A stretch of DNA of 55,976 nt from Actinomycetota bacterium (lineage in GTDB: Bacteria; Actinomycetota; Thermoleophilia; Solirubrobacterales; 70-9), in the NCBI GenBank assembly GCA_048498975.1, contig JBEHWY010000001.1, positions 1-55,976 on the forward strand, given 5' to 3'. This document shows positions 20,055 through 26,419 of this stretch, in pieces (position 1 is the first letter of the stretch; each line of letters opens with the position of its first letter). Under the pieces are notes generated by a model, which worked only from the letters and a program-made list of their open reading frames with translations, did not search any database and was not told where the DNA came from. A program made the translations under genes and the position numbers.

Positions 20055-21230
20055 CTACGCCTGCGTCGCAGGGGATTTGGCCGGGTTCCAGCGGGTGCGG
20101 GGATCGATCGAGGACTCGATCGCGTTGCCCTTGTAGCGCTCGATCGCGTGGATCATCGTCTCCACCAGCTCCTCGCCCAGCAGCGTCGGCTGCAGGCCGA
20201 GGTCGAGCAGCTTGGTGTGGATCGCGTTGTAGTAGTGCTCTTCCTTCTCCACGCGCGGGTTCTCGTAGTGCTGGATCTCGACGCTGTAGCCGAGGTGCTC
20301 GCCGGCTTCCTTGACCAGCTCGGCCAGCTGCAGGACCGAGAACTGCTCGGTGAACTGGTTGAAGACGCGGTACTCGCCGCGCTCGGCCGGGTTGGTGGCG
20401 GCGAGCTCGACGCAGGCGAGGGTGTCGCGGATGTTGAGGAAGCCGCGGGTCTGATGGCCGGCGCCGTAGACGGTCAGCGGGTGGCCGATCACCGCCTGCA
20501 GGCAGAAGCGGTTGAGCACGGTGCCGAACAGCTCGTCGTAGTCGAAGCGGGTGATGAGGCGCTCGTCGCGCGAGGTCTCGTCGGTTTCGACGCCGTAGAC
20601 GACGCCCTGGTTGAGGTCGGTCGCGCGCAGGCCCCAGGTGCGGCAGGCGAAGTGGATGTTGGTCGAGTCGTGGACCTTCGAGCAGTGGTACAGCGAGCCG
20701 GGCAGTTTGGGGAACGGCAGCGTGTCCTTGCGCCCCTTGTGCTCGATCTCGATGTAGCCCTCCTCGATGTCGATGTTGGGCTGGCCGTACTCGCCCATCG
20801 TCCCCAGCTTCACCAGGTGGGCGTCGGGGACGTGGTCGCGCATCGCGAACAGCAGGTTGAGGTTGCCGATCACGTTGGCGTGCTGGGTTTCGACCGCGCG
20901 CTCGCGGGAGAGCATCGAGAACGGCGCCGAGGCCTGCTGGCCGTAATGGACGACGACCTCGGGCTTGGTCTCGGCGACGACCTCTTCGAGGAAGTCGCCG
21001 TCCTCGATCGCGCCCTCGTAGCTGCGGATCTGCTCGCCGGAGACCTCGCGCCAGGCGGCGACGCGGCCCTCGAGCGAGGCGATCGGGGTCAGCGAGCCGC
21101 TGCCGTGTTCGTGGTGCCAGCGGCGCCGGGAGAAGTTGTCGACGACCGAGACCTCGTGGCCGCGGGCCGAGAAGCGGAGCGCGGTGGGCCAGCCGAGGTA
21201 GCCGTCACCGCCCAGGATCAGAACTCGCAT
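20055..21230 (-). CDS. sqdB: UDP-sulfoquinovose synthase
   Basis: MRVLILGGDGYLGWP Rossmann fold, plus the SQD1/SqdB-specific block KLGTMGEYGQPNIDIEEGYIEIEHKGRKDTLPFPKLPGSLYHCSKVHDS...WGLRATDLNQGVVYGV...LNRFCLQAVIGHPLTVYGAGHQTRGF. Confidence 0.85.
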   Translation of the reverse strand: MRVLILGGDGYLGWPTALRFSARGHEVSVVDNFSRRRWHHEHGSGSLTPIASLEGRVAAWREVSGEQIRSYEGAIEDGDFLEEVVAETKPEVVVHYGQQASAPFSMLSRERAVETQHANVIGNLNLLFAMRDHVPDAHLVKLGTMGEYGQPNIDIEEGYIEIEHKGRKDTLPFPKLPGSLYHCSKVHDSTNIHFACRTWGLRATDLNQGVVYGVETDETSRDERLITRFDYDELFGTVLNRFCLQAVIGHPLTVYGAGHQTRGFLNIRDTLACVELAATNPAERGEYRVFNQFTEQFSVLQLAELVKEAGEHLGYSVEIQHYENPRVEKEEHYYNAIHTKLLDLGLQPTLLGEELVETMIHAIERYKGNAIESSIDPRTRWNPAKSPATQA

Positions 21231-21316
21231 AGGCGGCGCAGCGTAGCTGAACCCGCGGCGCAAACGGCTTCGGACCGGCCCCGGCGCAGCTGCCCCCTCA
21301 ACCTAGAATCGCCCCG

Positions 21317-22735
21317 GTGAGAGCGCGCCTGGAGAATGCCTGCGGCGGCCGACGGGCGGCTGTCGCGCTGGCCCTCGTCTTCCTGCTCGGGCTCGGTCTG
21401 CGCCTCGACTACGCGATCCGCGCCCCCCAGCACCCGGTCGACGACGCCCGCGCCTACGCGCGGATCTCGCGGGCGCTGTACGAGGGCGAGGGCTACACGC
21501 AGGGGCCGGGATTCGGCTACCTGCAGTCGGCCTCCAATTATCAGCCGGGGCTGCCGCTGTTCGTGACCGGGCTCTACGAGGTGCGCCGCGCGCCCGACGA
21601 ACGCTTCGCCCGGATCGTGCTGGCACTGCTCAGCTCGCTGGCGATCCCCTTCGCCTTCGCGATCGGGCGCCGCCTCGGCGGCCCCGTGGGCCGACGGGCC
21701 GATTTCGGTGGACTATCACCCGAAATCGGCCCGTCGGCCGCGGTGGTTGCCGGGTTGATGGCGGCGACGGTGGTGGCGGTGTACCCGGCGCTGCTCGAGT
21801 ACACGGGGATGCTGATGACCGAGCCGGTGGGGACGGCGCTGCTCGCCGGCACGGTCCTCTTGCTGCTGCGCGCGCGCGAACGCGAACGGCCCTGGCCGTG
21901 GGCGGCGACCGGGCTGGCGATCGGGGCGCTGGCGATGCTGCGGCCCGAGTACCTCCTCCTCGTCCTCGTCCTGCCGGCGCTGATGCTGCTGCCCTGGCAC
22001 CGCGACGCCGCCGGGCGCGGGCGGCGGTTGCGGCTGGCGGCGCTGATGGCGGGCTGCGCCCTGCTGGTGCTGGCGCCGTGGACGGTGCGCAACTTCATCG
22101 CCTTCGAACGGCTGGTGCCGGTCTCGACCGGCGGCGGCCAGGTCCTCTACGAGGGCAGCTACCTGCCCGCCGGCCCCAACCCCGAAAACATCACCGACCA
22201 CCTGCTCGCGGAATACCCGTGGATTCGGCGCCAGCTCGGGCCGCTGCCCGGGCCGATCTACCGCGGCCAGGCGGTGGCGGCGCTGGCCCACCGCCTCCAC
22301 CCCGGCGAGAACACCGACACGGCGCTGACCGGGATGGCGATCGACGCCTACTGGACGGCGGCCCGCTCCGAACCGCTCGACCTCGCCGGCTTCCTTGCCG
22401 GCAAGGTCTGGTTCGCCTGGACCGATCCGGCCCGCGGCGTGATGCGCTTCCCGCTCTGGCGGGCGCTGCAGATCGCGCTGCTGGCGGCGGCCGCGCTGGG
22501 CCTCGCCGTCAGCCTCGCCCGACGCCGCTTCGACGTCGCCGCGATCGCCGCGGTCCTCCTCGTCGTCACCCTCGTGCAGGGGCTCTACATCGCCTCGCCG
22601 CGGCGCACCCTGACCCTGCTGCCGCTGACCTCGGCCCTGGCCGGCTACGGCGCCGTCTGGCTCTGGGCTCAGATATGGAAGGTCGGCCCGCGGGTTTCCC
22701 AGAAGAGGTCGGAGTATTCGCCGGCGTCGACGTAG
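21317..22735 (+). CDS. GT-C fold membrane glycosyltransferase (GT39/ArnT/PMT_2-like), paralog A
   Basis: 472 aa with more than 10 TM segments. First-loop acidic motif PVDDARAY. GTG start lies 7 nt after TAGAAT, so the mRNA may be leaderless. Confidence 0.8.
   Translation: MRARLENACGGRRAAVALALVFLLGLGLRLDYAIRAPQHPVDDARAYARISRALYEGEGYTQGPGFGYLQSASNYQPGLPLFVTGLYEVRRAPDERFARIVLALLSSLAIPFAFAIGRRLGGPVGRRADFGGLSPEIGPSAAVVAGLMAATVVAVYPALLEYTGMLMTEPVGTALLAGTVLLLLRARERERPWPWAATGLAIGALAMLRPEYLLLVLVLPALMLLPWHRDAAGRGRRLRLAALMAGCALLVLAPWTVRNFIAFERLVPVSTGGGQVLYEGSYLPAGPNPENITDHLLAEYPWIRRQLGPLPGPIYRGQAVAALAHRLHPGENTDTALTGMAIDAYWTAARSEPLDLAGFLAGKVWFAWTDPARGVMRFPLWRALQIALLAAAALGLAVSLARRRFDVAAIAAVLLVVTLVQGLYIASPRRTLTLLPLTSALAGYGAVWLWAQIWKVGPRVSQKRSEYSPAST
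21689..21739. repeat. 51-nt perfect palindrome (20-bp stem, 11-nt loop) in frame inside GT-C paralog A
   Basis: GGCCGACGGGCCGATTTCGG-TGGACTATCAC-CCGAAATCGGCCCGTCGGCC. It encodes the core of the peptide GRRADFGGLSPEIGPSA. Confidence 0.9.
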
Positions 22736-23339
22736 TAGCTGGCCTTGCCGTGGAAGTTGCCGACGTCGAAGACGGCGCTGCCGGTCTTGTTCGCCTTCTT
22801 GCCGCCCCTGGTACCCGGGATCTCGTAACCCGATTCTTCGAGCAGGTAGAGCCGCAGCGGGATCTTGCCGGCGCCCTTGACCGTCATCTTCACCTTGCCG
22901 CCGCCGAGCTTCTTCACCTTGACCTGCGTTCGCGCGAGACTTCGGCCTGGGCGAAGGCGCCGGCGGCTTCGAAGCCGATCGTCAGTTTGGTCGCGGTCTT
23001 CGCCGCGTAGGAGAACTTGCCGGCGGCGTTGGCCTGGACGGTGAGCGTCTTGAATTCCTCGACCGAGTAGTAGCCGCCCTTGGGGATCCATTTGCTCAGC
23101 TTCACGGTGACGGGACCGGAGACGGGCTTGTTGGAGTCGTCGCGCACGACCCCTTCGATCGTCCGCGGCTTGCCCGGCTTGTCCGCACAGAGCACGGACC
23201 CGACGCTGTCCCGGTTGTGCCGGCCCTTGCCGCCGCACTTGAGCGAGATCGTGGCGGCCGAGGCGCTGGCGGCGACGGCGAGCAGGACGAGGGCGGCGAG
23301 AGCGAGAGGGAGCGCTGAGTGCAGGCGGCGTCTGGTCAT
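22669..23339 (-). pseudogene. secreted Ig-like/CarboxypepD_reg-like protein, apparent frameshift near 22925-22940
   Basis: A signal peptide (MTRRRLHSALPLALAALVLLAVAASASA) and N-terminal domain run in one frame to the stop at 22914. Protein-like sequence then continues in another frame (RTQVKVKKLGGGKVKMTVKG...FHI) to 22669. Confidence 0.55.
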
Positions 23340-23449
23340 GCGCGGCACCCTATTCCAGCCGCTCTCGGCGTCAGCGCCGCGCGCGGAGCGCACTGGGTGA
23401 AAACCACGGGGGCGGCGTCGGCCGCTCACACCCGCCCCCCCCGCGGCGG

Positions 23450-23833
23450 CTAATCGAGGTTGTACTTGACCTGGAAGACCAGCCTCACGTACATCGGCGT
23501 GTCGGCGCCTTTGAACTCGCACTTGTACTTCACCTTGTCGGGGGCGGTGGCGAGCACCGTCGGCGTGCAGTAGAAGCCGATCACGCTCTTCGGCTCCTCC
23601 ACCCGCAGGGCGAGGATCCGGTTCATCACCTTCTTGGCGTAGCCGCAGGTGGCGTATTCGGCCTGGACCTTGTTCACGTCGCGCGAGGTCAGCGTGCCTT
23701 TGACGGTCTTGCCGATCACGTTTTTGGAGTGCGTCGTGCAGGTCTTGGGCCCGCCCTTGGCGGCGGCGGTGCCGCTGAAGGCGATGACGGCGCAGAGGAC
23801 GGCGCCGGTGAGGATCAGGGAGATGCGTCGCAT
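23450..23833 (-). CDS. small secreted cysteine-containing protein (127 aa)
   Basis: AAGGAG SD upstream of the ATG at 23833. Signal peptide MRRISLILTGAVLCAVIAFSGTAAA. The mature part has 4 Cys. Confidence 0.7.
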   Translation of the reverse strand: MRRISLILTGAVLCAVIAFSGTAAAKGGPKTCTTHSKNVIGKTVKGTLTSRDVNKVQAEYATCGYAKKVMNRILALRVEEPKSVIGFYCTPTVLATAPDKVKYKCEFKGADTPMYVRLVFQVKYNLD

Positions 23834-23966
23834 GTGCGGGGGCTCCTTGTCGGTGTACGGGTCCCGAAGATCGGCCCCGGCGGGTTGGATCTTTAGCCCG
23901 GTCGGGCCGAGCCGGACACTCGCCGACAGCGCCGGCCGCCCCGCGCGCGGATAGCCTGACTCGGCT

Positions 23967-25388
23967 GTGACCGCCGTCGCCGACCGCATTCGGGCGCTGC
24001 CCCAGCGCCTCGGTAAGAGGACCCTCATCGCGCTGGTCGGGATCGCGCTGCTCGGCTTGCTGCTGCGCGGCGTCGCCGTGGTCCACCCGGTCGCCAACCC
24101 CGCCGACGACTCCCACGCCTACTTTGGCCTCGCCAAGGCGCTCTACGAAGAAGGCAGCTTCGGCGGGCCCGACTTCGAAAACTCGAGCGACTGGTCGCCG
24201 GGCGCGCCGCTGCTCTACGCGGCCAGCTTCGTCCTCACCGGCGGCGCCCGCGAAGGCACCGCCCGCGCCGTCGAGGCCCTCCTCGGCACCGCCGCGATCC
24301 TCGTCGTCTTCGCCCTAACCCGCCGCCTCGCCCTGGGCTCGCGGGGCCGACGGGCCGATTTCGGGCGACTATCACCCGAAATCGGCCCGTCGGCGGCTGG
24401 GGTCGTGGGGTTGGTGGCGGCTTTTGGGGTGGCGGTTTATCCGGCGTTCTTGCATTCGACGGGGGAGTTGATGAGCGAGCCGCCGGCGATGCTGACGCTG
24501 CCGGCCGCGGTGCTCGCCTTCCTCTGGGCGGGTGATGAGGAGCGGCGCTGGTGGGCCTGGCTGGTGCCGGGGGTGCTGTTCGGGCTGACGGCGATGTTCC
24601 GGCCCGAGTACCTGTTCGTCGGCGCCGCCTTCGTCGTCCTCGCCGCGCTGCGGGTGGGGCCGGCGCGCGGCTGGCGACCGGGACTGGCCGGCGCGGCGCT
24701 GCTGGCCGCGGCGCTGGTCGGGGTGATCCTCCCCTGGACGATCCGCAACGCCGACGTGCTCGGCCGCCTGGTGCCGATCTCGACCGGCAGCGGCAAGGCG
24801 CTCTACGTCGGCACCTTCCTCCCCGCTGACGGCGAATACCAGCGGGTCAAGGCGATCCTCTACGAGCGCAAGACGGGGATCTCGCTGCCGCCGCAGTCCG
24901 AAGCGCTGAACGAAGTCGACCCGACCCCACTCTTCGACGAAGTCGCGGAAAGCCGCTATCCCGACCTCCCCCGCGACTCCGCCCTCGGCAAGATCGGCAA
25001 GCAGAACTTCTCCAAGTACTTCGGCGAAGACCCGCTCGGCTACCTGGCGATGACCGCGCGCAAGGTCGGCCGGATGTGGAGCAGCGGGCCGGGCGCGGCG
25101 ATGAGCAGCACCCCCGGCCGCGTCGTCCAGATCCTGCTCGTCGCCCTCGGCCTCGCCGGCTTCGCCTGGCTCGGGCTGCGCCGCCGCTGGTGGGATCTGG
25201 TGGCGATGGCGACGCCGATCGTCCTCGTCACCGCGGTCGGCGCGATCTCGCTGGCGGCGCCGCGGCGCAACGAGGTGCTGATGACGCTCGTCTTTCCGCT
25301 CGCCGCCCTGGCCCTGGGTTGGGGGGCCGCGGCCCTATCCTCCGCACGCCAATGGTCCTCCAAGCAGGCATCTTCCCCGCCGAACTGA
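23967..25388 (+). CDS. GT-C fold membrane glycosyltransferase (GT39/ArnT/PMT_2-like), paralog B
   Basis: 473 aa with the same architecture as 21317-22735. First-loop motif PADDSHAY. GTG start. Confidence 0.8.
   Translation: MTAVADRIRALPQRLGKRTLIALVGIALLGLLLRGVAVVHPVANPADDSHAYFGLAKALYEEGSFGGPDFENSSDWSPGAPLLYAASFVLTGGAREGTARAVEALLGTAAILVVFALTRRLALGSRGRRADFGRLSPEIGPSAAGVVGLVAAFGVAVYPAFLHSTGELMSEPPAMLTLPAAVLAFLWAGDEERRWWAWLVPGVLFGLTAMFRPEYLFVGAAFVVLAALRVGPARGWRPGLAGAALLAAALVGVILPWTIRNADVLGRLVPISTGSGKALYVGTFLPADGEYQRVKAILYERKTGISLPPQSEALNEVDPTPLFDEVAESRYPDLPRDSALGKIGKQNFSKYFGEDPLGYLAMTARKVGRMWSSGPGAAMSSTPGRVVQILLVALGLAGFAWLGLRRRWWDLVAMATPIVLVTAVGAISLAAPRRNEVLMTLVFPLAALALGWGAAALSSARQWSSKQASSPPN
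24345..24395. repeat. second copy of the 51-nt palindrome, in frame inside GT-C paralog B
   Basis: GGCCGACGGGCCGATTTCGG-GCGACTATCAC-CCGAAATCGGCCCGTCGGCG. It matches the copy at 21689-21739 at 48 of 51 nt, while the flanking DNA is much more divergent. Confidence 0.9.
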
Positions 25389-26419
25389 CGGCCCTGCGCG
25401 GCGCCGGTCTGCTGATCGCCGCCCTGCTGATCGTCTACGCGGTCGTCCGCCGCCACACGCTGCGCAACGCCGACGTGCTGCTGCTGCTCGCCGCCGGCGT
25501 CGGCCTGGCCCTGGTCACCGGCACCGAAATCATCGACGGCCTGCTCTCCGCCTTCTCCTTCGAAAAGGGCAACGGCGGCCGCATCCTCGGCCTCGCCGTC
25601 TTCGCGATCTTCGCCCTCTTCCTACTGACGCTGCGGGCGCTCTCGCAGACGGCGCGCAACGCGCGCCAGCTCTCGGCGGCGCTCGAGGGGCTGGCCTGGG
25701 AGGAGTTCCGCCAGGCCGGCCTACCGGAGCGCTTCCGCGGCAAGGTCGCGATCCTGATCCCGGCCTACAACGAGGCCGAGAACGTCGGCGTCGTGCTCAA
25801 CCAGATCCCGGCCGAGGTCTGCGGCGTGCCGACCGCCGTGCTCGTCGTCGACGACGGCTCGCGCGACGGCACCGGCGACGTCGCCGCCGAGCACGGCGCG
25901 CTCGTCGCCCGCCACGTCACCAACCGCGGCGGCGGCGCGGCCCTGCGCACCGGCTACCGGCTGATGGTCGAATCCGGCGCCGAGATCGTCGTCACCCTCG
26001 ACGCCGACGGCCAGCACCGCCCCGACCAGATGGAGCGGCTGGTGGCGCCGATCCTCGACGGCGAAGTCGACGTCGCCCACGGCTCGCGCGTCCTCGGCGC
26101 CGCCGACCGCAACCACTTCGCCCGCGAGCTCGGCATCGTCTTCTTCAACCGCCTCGTCTCCTTCATCACCCGCACTCACGTCACCGACTGCTCCAACGGC
26201 TACCGCGCGGTGCGGACCACCGTGCTGCCCCAGCTCGTCCTGCGCCAGGAGCAGTTCCACACCTCGGAGTTCATGATCGAGGCGATCAAGCGCGGGATCC
26301 CCGCCCGCGAGATCCCGATCACGGTCGAACAGCGCCTGCACGGCCACTCGAAGAAGCCGGCCGTCTTCCGCTACGGCGTCGGCTTCGCCAACGCCATCGT
26401 CCGCACCTGGCTGCGCTAG
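25352..26419 (+). CDS. GT2 glycosyltransferase (polyprenyl-phosphate sugar synthase-like: DPM1/ArnC/GtrB type) with N-terminal multi-TM domain
   Basis: The internal ATG at 25352 gives MVLQAGIF... followed by about 3-4 TM segments. After those comes AILIPAYNEAENVG...VVDDGSRDGT...DADGQH. The gene overlaps the end of GT-C B by 37 nt. Confidence 0.8.
   Translation: MVLQAGIFPAELTALRGAGLLIAALLIVYAVVRRHTLRNADVLLLLAAGVGLALVTGTEIIDGLLSAFSFEKGNGGRILGLAVFAIFALFLLTLRALSQTARNARQLSAALEGLAWEEFRQAGLPERFRGKVAILIPAYNEAENVGVVLNQIPAEVCGVPTAVLVVDDGSRDGTGDVAAEHGALVARHVTNRGGGAALRTGYRLMVESGAEIVVTLDADGQHRPDQMERLVAPILDGEVDVAHGSRVLGAADRNHFARELGIVFFNRLVSFITRTHVTDCSNGYRAVRTTVLPQLVLRQEQFHTSEFMIEAIKRGIPAREIPITVEQRLHGHSKKPAVFRYGVGFANAIVRTWLR

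Follow-up and report, generated by a model that had tools for sequence, protein, structure and literature searches.

A 55,976-nt stretch of DNA from a soil bacterium of the Solirubrobacterales (Actinomycetota; contig JBEHWY010000001.1, positions 1 to 55,976), here called the window, contains between positions 20,055 and 26,419 an island in which a gene for a UDP-sulfoquinovose synthase (sqdB) lies divergently beside two genes for glycosyltransferases of the GT-C fold (A and B), two genes for secreted proteins and a gene for a family 2 glycosyltransferase (GT2), whose catalytic domain is fused to an N-terminal DUF2304-like membrane domain. We lean towards the reading that this island follows, with sulfoquinovose as its sugar, the plan of extracytoplasmic glycosylation systems that combine a lipid-carrier sugar synthase with GT-C transferases, the acceptor being located in the cell envelope. 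Only the identity of SqdB and its linkage to the GT2 count as the best-supported parts of this reading. An earlier note on the same DNA had proposed a polyprenyl-phosphate route for sulfoquinovose, which is supported by the gene order, the linkage across lineages and the family of the GT2, and all the genes it listed were found where it had placed them.

The sqdB gene (20055–21230, minus strand) codes for a protein of 391 amino acids, which aligned by phmmer with SQD1 of Arabidopsis (PDB 1qrr) with an E-value of 1.5e-150, 58% of 381 residues being identical in an alignment free of gaps, and which matches the NCBIfam model NF041015 end to end (positions 1–384, E 7e-150). The nucleotide-binding motif of the short-chain dehydrogenases/reductases (SDR) is present at its N-terminus as GGDGYLGW, and residues T145, Y182, H183 and K186 are kept, the blocks GTMGEYG and YHCSK aligning with GTMGEYG and YHLSK of 1qrr. 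We take Thr145, Tyr182 and Lys186 to have the catalytic roles in SQD1, and His183 beside the catalytic Tyr to be specific for SQD1. The open reading frame (ORF) extends to a TTG codon at 21263, yet every orthologue (391 amino acids) begins at the ATG at 21230. The earlier assignment as a clear UDP-sulfoquinovose synthase is upheld by the ungapped identity to SQD1 and by the catalytic residues, and the predicted synthesis of UDP-sulfoquinovose from UDP-glucose and sulfite is well supported by strong homology. Because a homologue search with SqdB gave only Solirubrobacterales proteins of at least 90% identity and no distant contexts, the GT2 was taken as the anchor for searching further.

The GT2 gene (25352–26419, plus strand) starts with an ATG at 25352, overlaps the end of the gene for GT-C B by 37 nt and codes for 355 amino acids, which is also the length of its orthologues. 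Its catalytic GT-A domain, together with a conserved C-terminal helix ending in TWLR, occupies positions 25745–26419 and matches PF00535 with an E-value of 2.7e-23; the DxD-type motifs VVDDGSRDGT and LDADGQH are invariant in the family alignment. Among NCBIfam models, AglJ, PpgS and a (haloarchaeal) dolichyl-phosphate hexose transferase match it best, and its sequence matches in the PDB are DPMS and ArnC. Foldseek with an AlphaFold2 model of the protein (mean predicted local distance difference test, pLDDT, 81) likewise gave ArnC and DPMS at ranks 1–9, with root-mean-square deviations of 2.6–4.1 Å (2.6–3.1 Å for the top matches), the soluble enzymes GpgS and MpgS coming close behind and GtrB matching too. 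By these comparisons the GT2 is assigned to the broad family of polyprenyl-phosphate glycosyltransferases, with no named equivalog.

In the N-terminal membrane domain of the GT2 (25352–25705, plus strand), AlphaFold2 places three helices at residues 10–32, 39–57 and 75–121. Because a direct Pfam scan of this region came out empty, a profile-profile comparison was needed to detect its homology. The DUF2304 model PF10066 was matched by 28 of 36 aligned full-length family members, the unmatched ones being eight Solirubrobacterales members including the protein of the window; comparing the N-terminal domains of the order with those of the DUF2304-positive members by hhalign gave a probability of 95.6% and an E-value of 1e-8 over 107 columns. 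By this match the membrane domain is best classified as a divergent DUF2304 domain similar to GacJ and Rv3632. A search of 1.8 billion representative proteins returned many full-length relatives of 345–355 amino acids and 32–49% identity, which align from the first membrane helix through the conserved C-terminal TWLR; phmmer alignments of the relatives extend through the N-terminal domain, and their precomputed architecture in a large protein database is DUF2304 (PF10066) plus GT2. The overlapping GT2 with a membrane domain of its own, as described in the earlier note, was therefore retained with its 37-nt overlap and three predicted helices, the domain itself being corrected to a divergent DUF2304. 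This identity matters because GacJ and Rv3632 are partners of polyprenyl-phosphate sugar synthases: GacJ, a DUF2304 protein with three transmembrane helices, forms a complex with and activates GacI, the undecaprenyl-phosphate N-acetylglucosamine (GlcNAc) synthase, and its mycobacterial homologue Rv3632 likewise stimulates PpgS (bioRxiv 10.1101/180810). These are the two DUF2304-assisted GT2 pairs described in that study, both yielding polyprenyl-phosphate sugars, and it also mentions fusions of DUF2304 with GacI in Geobacter, Desulfuromonas and further genera (bioRxiv 10.1101/180810).

The neighbourhood of sqdB was scanned in one genome per species with SqdB, which gave 80 loci with SqdB proteins 92–72% identical to that of the window, and the proteins of the window were mapped onto these loci. 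Two groups were separated, a near clade of 50 evaluable loci, in which the identity of SqdB is 78% or higher, and a far clade of 19 evaluable loci with 72–76% identity. The GT2 gene was present near sqdB in all 69 evaluable loci (50/50 in the near and 19/19 in the far clade) and directly divergent from it in 12 of the 19 far-clade loci. Of the 50 near-clade loci, 48 have a GT-C gene in the A slot, and likewise 48 have both GT-C slots filled together with the GT2. Because the GT2 was found in 69/69 loci but GT-C genes are mostly missing in the far clade, it is the GT2 rather than the GT-C enzymes that invariably accompanies sqdB; sqdB and the DUF2304-GT2 gene are the conserved core, and the genes for GT-C enzymes and secreted proteins are lineage-specific additions. 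The synteny of sqdB, GT-C and GT2 genes thus holds for the near clade, but in most far-clade loci only its sqdB–GT2 part does. Across the order, identities are 72–92% for SqdB and 71–90% for the GT2, values comparable to those of IlvB and much higher than those of the GT-C genes.

In-order synteny was rejected as sufficient proof of a common function, because ilvBN, menF, gatCAB and a zinc-ribbon gene are equally syntenic; with ilvBN, menF and the zinc-ribbon gene as conserved as neighbours, it is weak functional evidence. Two loci (L069 and L075) have genes for a methyltransferase, an RTX-repeat protein and others in place of the ilvB neighbourhood, and still keep sqdB, a GT-C gene and the GT2 gene together. 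Some far-clade loci carry a gene for a protein of 1,016–1,027 amino acids beside the GT2 gene, which lies between the GT2 gene and sqdB in L063 (6912–9971) and L067 (6888–9971), whereas in L068 (5134–8184) it adjoins the GT2 gene on the far side from sqdB; the products from L063 and L068 scan as LuxR-type regulators (AAA_16, TPR, GerE). A single metagenome bin, JBJMKN01, has two sqdB loci (L009 and L059, SqdB 90% and 77% identical to that of the window) and is either mixed or contains two sqdB copies.

Outside the order, six long contigs carrying distant DUF2304-GT2 genes were picked on size alone, with GC contents of 33–46% and one of them from a Patescibacteria-labelled genome. All six contain an SqdB-family gene directly upstream of the GT2 gene, with at most a gene for a thioredoxin, a second epimerase or a GT-C enzyme in between. 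The encoded proteins are 42–53% identical to SqdB of the window; the five intact copies match NF041015 end to end with E-values of 1e-118 to 1e-136, and the copy in L085 is frameshifted and was detected by tblastn. These distant clusters often add genes for sulfate activation (CysD/CysN), thioredoxin, methyltransferases and sulfotransferases, and they include a flippase-like LPG_synthase_TM protein in five of six and PMT_2-type GT-C genes in four of six cases. A metagenome scan with the family alignment yielded 80 further loci, 38 of them not of the Solirubrobacterales type; 17 of these 38 have 2.5 kb or more flanking the GT2 gene on each side. SqdB was encoded within 6 kb of the GT2 in 15 of these 17 evaluable loci (12 of 13 when at least 4 kb were available on both sides), mostly 0–460 nt upstream on the same strand, across loci of 33–73% GC. 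The linkage thus extends beyond the relatives of the organism into unrelated lineages with GT2 homologues of 32–46% identity (6/6 long contigs and 15/17 metagenome loci), and because it is kept across lineages, contexts and GC contents, we regard it as strong evidence that SqdB and the DUF2304-GT2 act in one pathway, rather than of mere synteny.

Several of these loci show features of their own. A second high-GC lineage encodes SqdB proteins 63–69% and GT2 proteins about 36–46% identical to those of the window, and a gene for a class-V aminotransferase or cysteine-desulfurase-like protein lies just before sqdB and the GT2 gene on the same strand (L143, 7516–8754; L167, 7006–8697; L148, 5141–6550); it may possibly play a role in sulfur supply. 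Some distant SqdB proteins are 508–516 amino acids long with an N-terminal extension of about 85 residues (L083, 2650–7937; L084, 6133–7981 and 15873–17044; L086, 2453–6978), and their genes precede one for a thioredoxin and occur together with sulfate-activation genes of the CysD/CysN type. This arrangement suggests that sulfite is supplied specifically for making the sugar. A recurring set downstream in distant clusters consists of genes for a second GT2, two methyltransferases, a sulfotransferase/sulfatase-family protein and the LPG_synthase_TM protein (L087, 8597–13129; L088, 9026–12735; L083, 9053–14220), with the flippase-like domain being fused to the second GT2 in L087. From this set one may suspect that the product of the distant lineages is more complex and methylated or sulfated.

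The genes for the two GT-C enzymes are located at 21317–22735 (A, 472 amino acids, in the variable slot adjoining sqdB) and 23967–25388 (B, 473 amino acids, the conserved GT-C), both on the plus strand. The proteins are true paralogues, as the earlier note had held, sharing 38% identity with an E-value of 3e-61. With the Pfam model PMT_2, the GT-C proteins score 21.9 (A) and 22.5 bits against a gathering score of 26.1, and most of the homologues listed for GT-C A carry PF13231 according to precomputed annotation. Because a sequence search with GT-C A against the PDB gave no match, a fold search was needed. An AlphaFold2 model of GT-C B (pLDDT 82.7, predicted template-modelling score 0.87) retrieved almost exclusively GT-C enzymes at Foldseek ranks 1–22 (AglB, STT3, PglB, Pmt1/2/4 and ALG3), the two other entries being chains of the glycosylphosphatidylinositol transamidase complex; the GT-C matches had a Foldseek probability of 1.0 and template-modelling scores of 0.36–0.50 by query length. 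The residues D42-D43 (PVDDARAY in A, PADDSHAY in B) follow the first helix and are invariant across the alignment of A and B orthologues; judging from the model topology, they probably sit in the first extracytoplasmic loop. GT-C B was found in 50/50 near-clade loci with 55–76% identity, and the median overlap of its gene with the GT2 gene of 34 nt indicates translational coupling. The slot adjoining sqdB is hypervariable (L003–L058), its occupant in most genomes being only about 42% identical to A of the window at SqdB identities of about 90%, at which GT-C B keeps 60–76%, and a GT-C A of the window type was met in L001, L002, L107 and L173 and among the GT-C A homologues listed. This variability suggests diversifying replacement, as in surface-antigen loci.

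In the pathway that we favour, SqdB would act in the cytoplasm, converting UDP-glucose and sulfite into UDP-sulfoquinovose, and the DUF2304-GT2, which by the cross-phylum gene linkage works with SqdB, would attach the sulfoquinovose to polyprenyl phosphate on the inner side of the membrane. Polyprenyl phosphate is the probable acceptor in view of the enzyme family and the co-occurring GT-C genes. The lipid-linked sugar would then be flipped by a protein encoded outside the window, and GT-C B, which is coupled to the GT2, and GT-C A would pass the sulfoquinovose to one or more extracytoplasmic acceptors.

A number of observations weigh against this pathway. GT-C genes are absent within 10 kb in 17 of the 19 far-clade loci and nearby in 2 only, none was seen among the neighbours scanned in four loci of the second high-GC lineage, and tblastn gave no match to the GT-C genes of the window in the distant clusters, whose own GT-C genes are not their orthologues; the sqdB–GT2 pair can thus stand alone, as sqdB–sqdX does for sulfolipid. 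Two loci (L131 and L163) have the GT2 gene but no gene for SqdB within the sequence available, and two short contigs (L169 and L171, whose GT2 source names are Bathyarchaeota and Desulfobacterales) lack one directly upstream; the upstream gene in L169 codes for a different SDR epimerase, which is a mild negative on contigs that are too short to settle the linkage. SqdB of the window reaches 499 bits on NF041015, under the equivalog cut-off of 575, the GT2 stays under every NCBIfam equivalog cut-off (AglJ 105 vs. 325, PpgS 99 vs. 370 and ArnC 45 vs. 529 bits), and Pfam shows no match of PF10066 in the window GT2 at E ≤ 0.01. No flippase gene (GtrA-like, SMR-type or LPG_synthase_TM) was found among the neighbours of the island or in the window. 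In favour of the pathway, no GT4 or GT8 enzyme of the SqdX/SqdD type occurs among the gene products scanned across the 56-kb window, in agreement with the earlier note; this result covers the window only, and a canonical synthase for sulfoquinovosyl diacylglycerol (SQDG) may be encoded elsewhere in the genome.

The main alternative, which we consider unlikely but worth weighing, is that the DUF2304-GT2 takes the place of SqdX/SqdD as the last enzyme of a membrane lipid carrying sulfoquinovose, be it SQDG or a different sulfoglycolipid, while the GT-C enzymes of the near clade serve another or a secondary purpose. Most far-clade loci and those examined from the second high-GC lineage would fit such a role, consisting of sqdB and the GT2 gene alone, with no GT-C gene detected within 10 kb, like the cyanobacterial sqdB–sqdX pair. 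On the other hand, GT-C genes are coupled to the GT2 gene in 50/50 near-clade loci and recur in at least eight distant clusters (L086–L088, L131, L146, L153, L158 and L166), and GT-C enzymes use polyprenyl-phosphate-linked donors. Nor do the consumers of a lipid-linked donor need to be encoded next to its synthase, as illustrated by ppgS (Rv3631) and Rv3779, which are about 150 locus numbers apart in Mycobacterium tuberculosis. The housekeeping-level conservation of SqdB and the GT2 is as expected of a core membrane-lipid function, which would also agree with the missing SqdX/SqdD-type enzymes among the scanned products; moreover, the flippase-like partner of the distant clusters belongs to the MprF-type family, which we take to flip a diacylglycerol-based lipid. 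The closest characterised relatives of the GT2 (AglJ, PpgS, DPMS, ArnC and GtrB), by contrast, all transfer to polyprenyl phosphate, and the two DUF2304-assisted GT2 pairs of the cited study make polyprenyl-phosphate sugars (bioRxiv 10.1101/180810).

It is improbable that SqdB and its neighbours share no substrate at all, with the GT2 and GT-C enzymes forming an ordinary polyprenyl-phosphate system for hexoses or N-acetylhexosamines and SqdB feeding an unlinked transferase. In its favour, the block of zinc-ribbon gene, GT2 gene, GT-C genes, sqdB, ilvBN and menF is inherited together within the Solirubrobacterales, but the linkage survives the loss of the ilvB neighbourhood in L069 and L075 and recurs across phyla in unrelated contexts of varied GC content (6/6 long contigs and 15/17 metagenome loci). 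The sugar specificity of the GT2 is unreadable from its sequence, and the loci L131 and L163 without an adjacent SqdB and L169 with its different SDR epimerase upstream would be in accord with this reading; the sulfate-activation genes (CysD, CysN) and thioredoxin genes of the distant clusters argue against it. That the SqdB-family enzyme makes some other 6-modified UDP-sugar to be transferred by the system, as could be suspected from the 394–499 bits of the window SqdB and its cluster-linked homologues (under the NF041015 cut-off of 575) and from the N-terminal extension of about 85 residues in some distant copies, appears very improbable in view of the 58% ungapped identity to the crystallised plant SQD1, the conserved SQD1-specific His beside the catalytic Tyr and the CysD/CysN and thioredoxin genes in distant clusters, which fit a supply of sulfite.

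The two-step logic of the favoured lipid-linked pathway is known from GacI/GacJ–GacL, PpgS/Rv3632–Rv3779, ArnC–ArnT and Dpm1–Pmt, and sulfoquinovose as the transferred sugar would be new. The island resembles the system for the GlcNAc side chain of the group A carbohydrate of Streptococcus pyogenes, in which GacL is the GT-C enzyme, in that a GacI-type GT2 is combined with a three-helix DUF2304 domain, an arrangement that provides a polyprenyl-phosphate sugar. The sugar provided by GacI/GacJ is used outside the membrane by an integral-membrane glycosyltransferase (bioRxiv 10.1101/180810). Unlike in GacI/GacJ, the DUF2304 domain of the window is fused to the GT2 and too divergent for Pfam, sqdB is present instead of a UDP-GlcNAc supply, and there are two GT-C paralogues and no adjacent flippase gene. 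PpgS (Rv3631)/Rv3632 of M. tuberculosis, which serves the addition of galactosamine to arabinogalactan and whose product is consumed by the GT-C enzyme Rv3779, is also actinobacterial, and the NCBIfam model of PpgS is the second-best match of the GT2 (E 2.3e-28); it differs by the other sugar, by consisting of separate rather than fused proteins and by the score of the window GT2 of 99 bits against a cut-off of 370. The pairs ArnC/ArnT and DPM1/Pmt share the same two-step logic, with ArnC and DPMS as the best matches of the GT2 model and STT3, AglB, PglB and Pmt as those of the GT-C B fold. The membrane helices of ArnC and DPM1 are C-terminal, whereas the membrane domain of the window GT2 is N-terminal, and its GT-C enzymes are compact (about 470 amino acids) without a large extracytoplasmic domain, unlike those of the ArnT/Pmt systems.

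On the side of the sugar, the pathways to SQDG by SqdB/SqdX (cyanobacteria), SqdB/SqdD (Rhodobacter) and SQD1/SQD2 (plants) have the same first enzyme and an adjoining transferase gene, but the partner in the window is a DUF2304-GT2 of the polyprenyl-phosphate type instead of a GT4 or GT8 diacylglycerol glycosyltransferase. Agl3 of Sulfolobus acidocaldarius is likewise a UDP-sulfoquinovose synthase that serves a glycoconjugate rather than a lipid. The gene for a membrane-bound glycosyltransferase close to agl3, Agl1 (saci0421), has been predicted to transfer sulfoquinovose (PMC4388408). Unlike in our proposal, the sulfoquinovose of Sulfolobus is thought to be added to a dolichol-linked N-glycan, which is then delivered by AglB; Agl1 was compared by its description only. 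This N-glycan is the sole glycoconjugate use of UDP-sulfoquinovose that we found described (PMC4388408; PMC8993221). No report of polyprenyl-phosphate sulfoquinovose, of sulfoquinovose in Solirubrobacterales or of a pairing of sqdB with DUF2304-GT2 turned up in the literature searched, which agrees with the earlier view of a route undescribed in bacteria, and the searched literature is incomplete, so the novelty is unproven.

As for the setting of the island, the window has a GC content of 70%, and its genes stand out by a third-codon-position GC of 0.89–0.96, which was the basis for calling them. Its proteins have their closest homologues in metagenome-assembled genomes that bear the label Solirubrobacterales (Thermoleophilia, Actinomycetota). 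One flank of the island contains the housekeeping genes leuA, serA, ilvC, menE/A/C/D/F and ilvBN, the other the zinc-ribbon gene, a DUF1800 gene, gatCAB, folD, a UvrD-type helicase gene, gltX and dnaE. The thiamine pyrophosphate enzyme encoded near sqdB was considered as a sulfoacetaldehyde acetyltransferase, but this was rejected because it scores 817 bits on TIGR00118, above the cut-off, and is thus a biosynthetic acetolactate synthase; ilvN adjoins its gene in relatives. The 86-nt gap between the divergent genes for SqdB and GT-C A (21231–21316) is presumed from its position to be a shared promoter region; a promoter and terminator scan of the island returned nothing informative, with no match to the sigma-70 consensus.

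Both genes for signal-peptide proteins noticed earlier are real, but they lie on the strand opposite to the GT-C genes and are therefore not co-transcribed with them, and one is frameshifted. SP1 (23450–23827, minus strand) codes for a small secreted protein of 125 amino acids with four cysteines, whose signal peptide was seen in the sequence and which has no family match in Pfam or NCBIfam. Ten of the 50 near-clade loci have homologues of SP1 in the same slot between the GT-C genes, without exception on the opposite strand and in some cases as tandem pairs (e.g., L007, 8190–8561; L053, 7786–8616; L056, 7849–8457). The coding phase of SP2 (22669–23339, minus strand) switches at about 22910, after ...AEVSRE. 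Because the closest relative has a single intact ORF of 221 amino acids (L173, 4798–5463), to which the two pieces show 78% and 81% identity, SP2 of the window is either a pseudogene or affected by a sequencing error. Its N-terminal piece (22914–23348) has no Pfam or NCBIfam match, and the end of the gene convergently overlaps that of GT-C A by about 67 nt in both the window and L173.

At one and the same loop position, both GT-C genes also contain some 60 extra nucleotides in frame, reading GRRADFG(G/R)LSPEIGPSAA. Within this insert lies a palindrome of about 51 nt with a perfect 20-bp stem, in the homologous cytoplasmic loop of A (copy 1, 21689–21739, with the in-frame reading GRRADFGGLSPEIGPSAA) and B (copy 2, 24345–24395), the latter falling into a low-confidence loop of the AlphaFold2 model (residues 127–132). 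The minimum free energy of the RNA hairpin in the GT-C A gene is −56.9 kcal/mol (z −7.5), and those of the copies overall range from −51 to −57 kcal/mol with z-scores of about −7 to −8. The insert is absent from the aligned GT-C A and B orthologues, except for GT-C B of the closest relative (L173, 5990–6040), in which both arms carry compensatory changes (CGG/CCG to CCC/GGG). Because L173 has the insert in GT-C B but not in GT-C A, the B copy predates the one in A, which is a recent product of either transposition or short-patch gene conversion. Neither the remainder of the window nor 2.3 Mb of other loci contained any further copy. A mobile element, gene conversion and a selected hairpin are candidates for the origin of the palindrome, which resembles the in-frame palindromic elements of Rickettsia.

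Extending the proposal from the island to the family, we see evenly balanced chances that DUF2304-GT2 fusions are widespread polyprenyl-phosphate sulfoquinovose synthases, which would provide the donor for envelope polymers or proteins in non-photosynthetic bacteria. The candidate users of such a lipid-linked sulfosugar comprise the Solirubrobacterales, which are very abundant in soil, a number of low-GC and high-GC lineages and at least one Patescibacteria-labelled genome. If true, bacterial glycobiology would gain a new lipid-linked sugar donor, and the DUF2304-GT2 proteins, a large uncharacterised enzyme family, a testable substrate; as the cassette consists of two genes only, the hypothesis is directly testable by heterologous expression. 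Sulfoquinovose is among the most abundant organosulfur compounds and is generally credited to the SQDG of phototrophs, with the archaeal N-glycan as the main exception. The proposed pathway would thus change the picture of which organisms produce the sulfoquinovose eaten by sulfoglycolytic soil bacteria, adding a non-phototrophic source to the organosulfur cycle.

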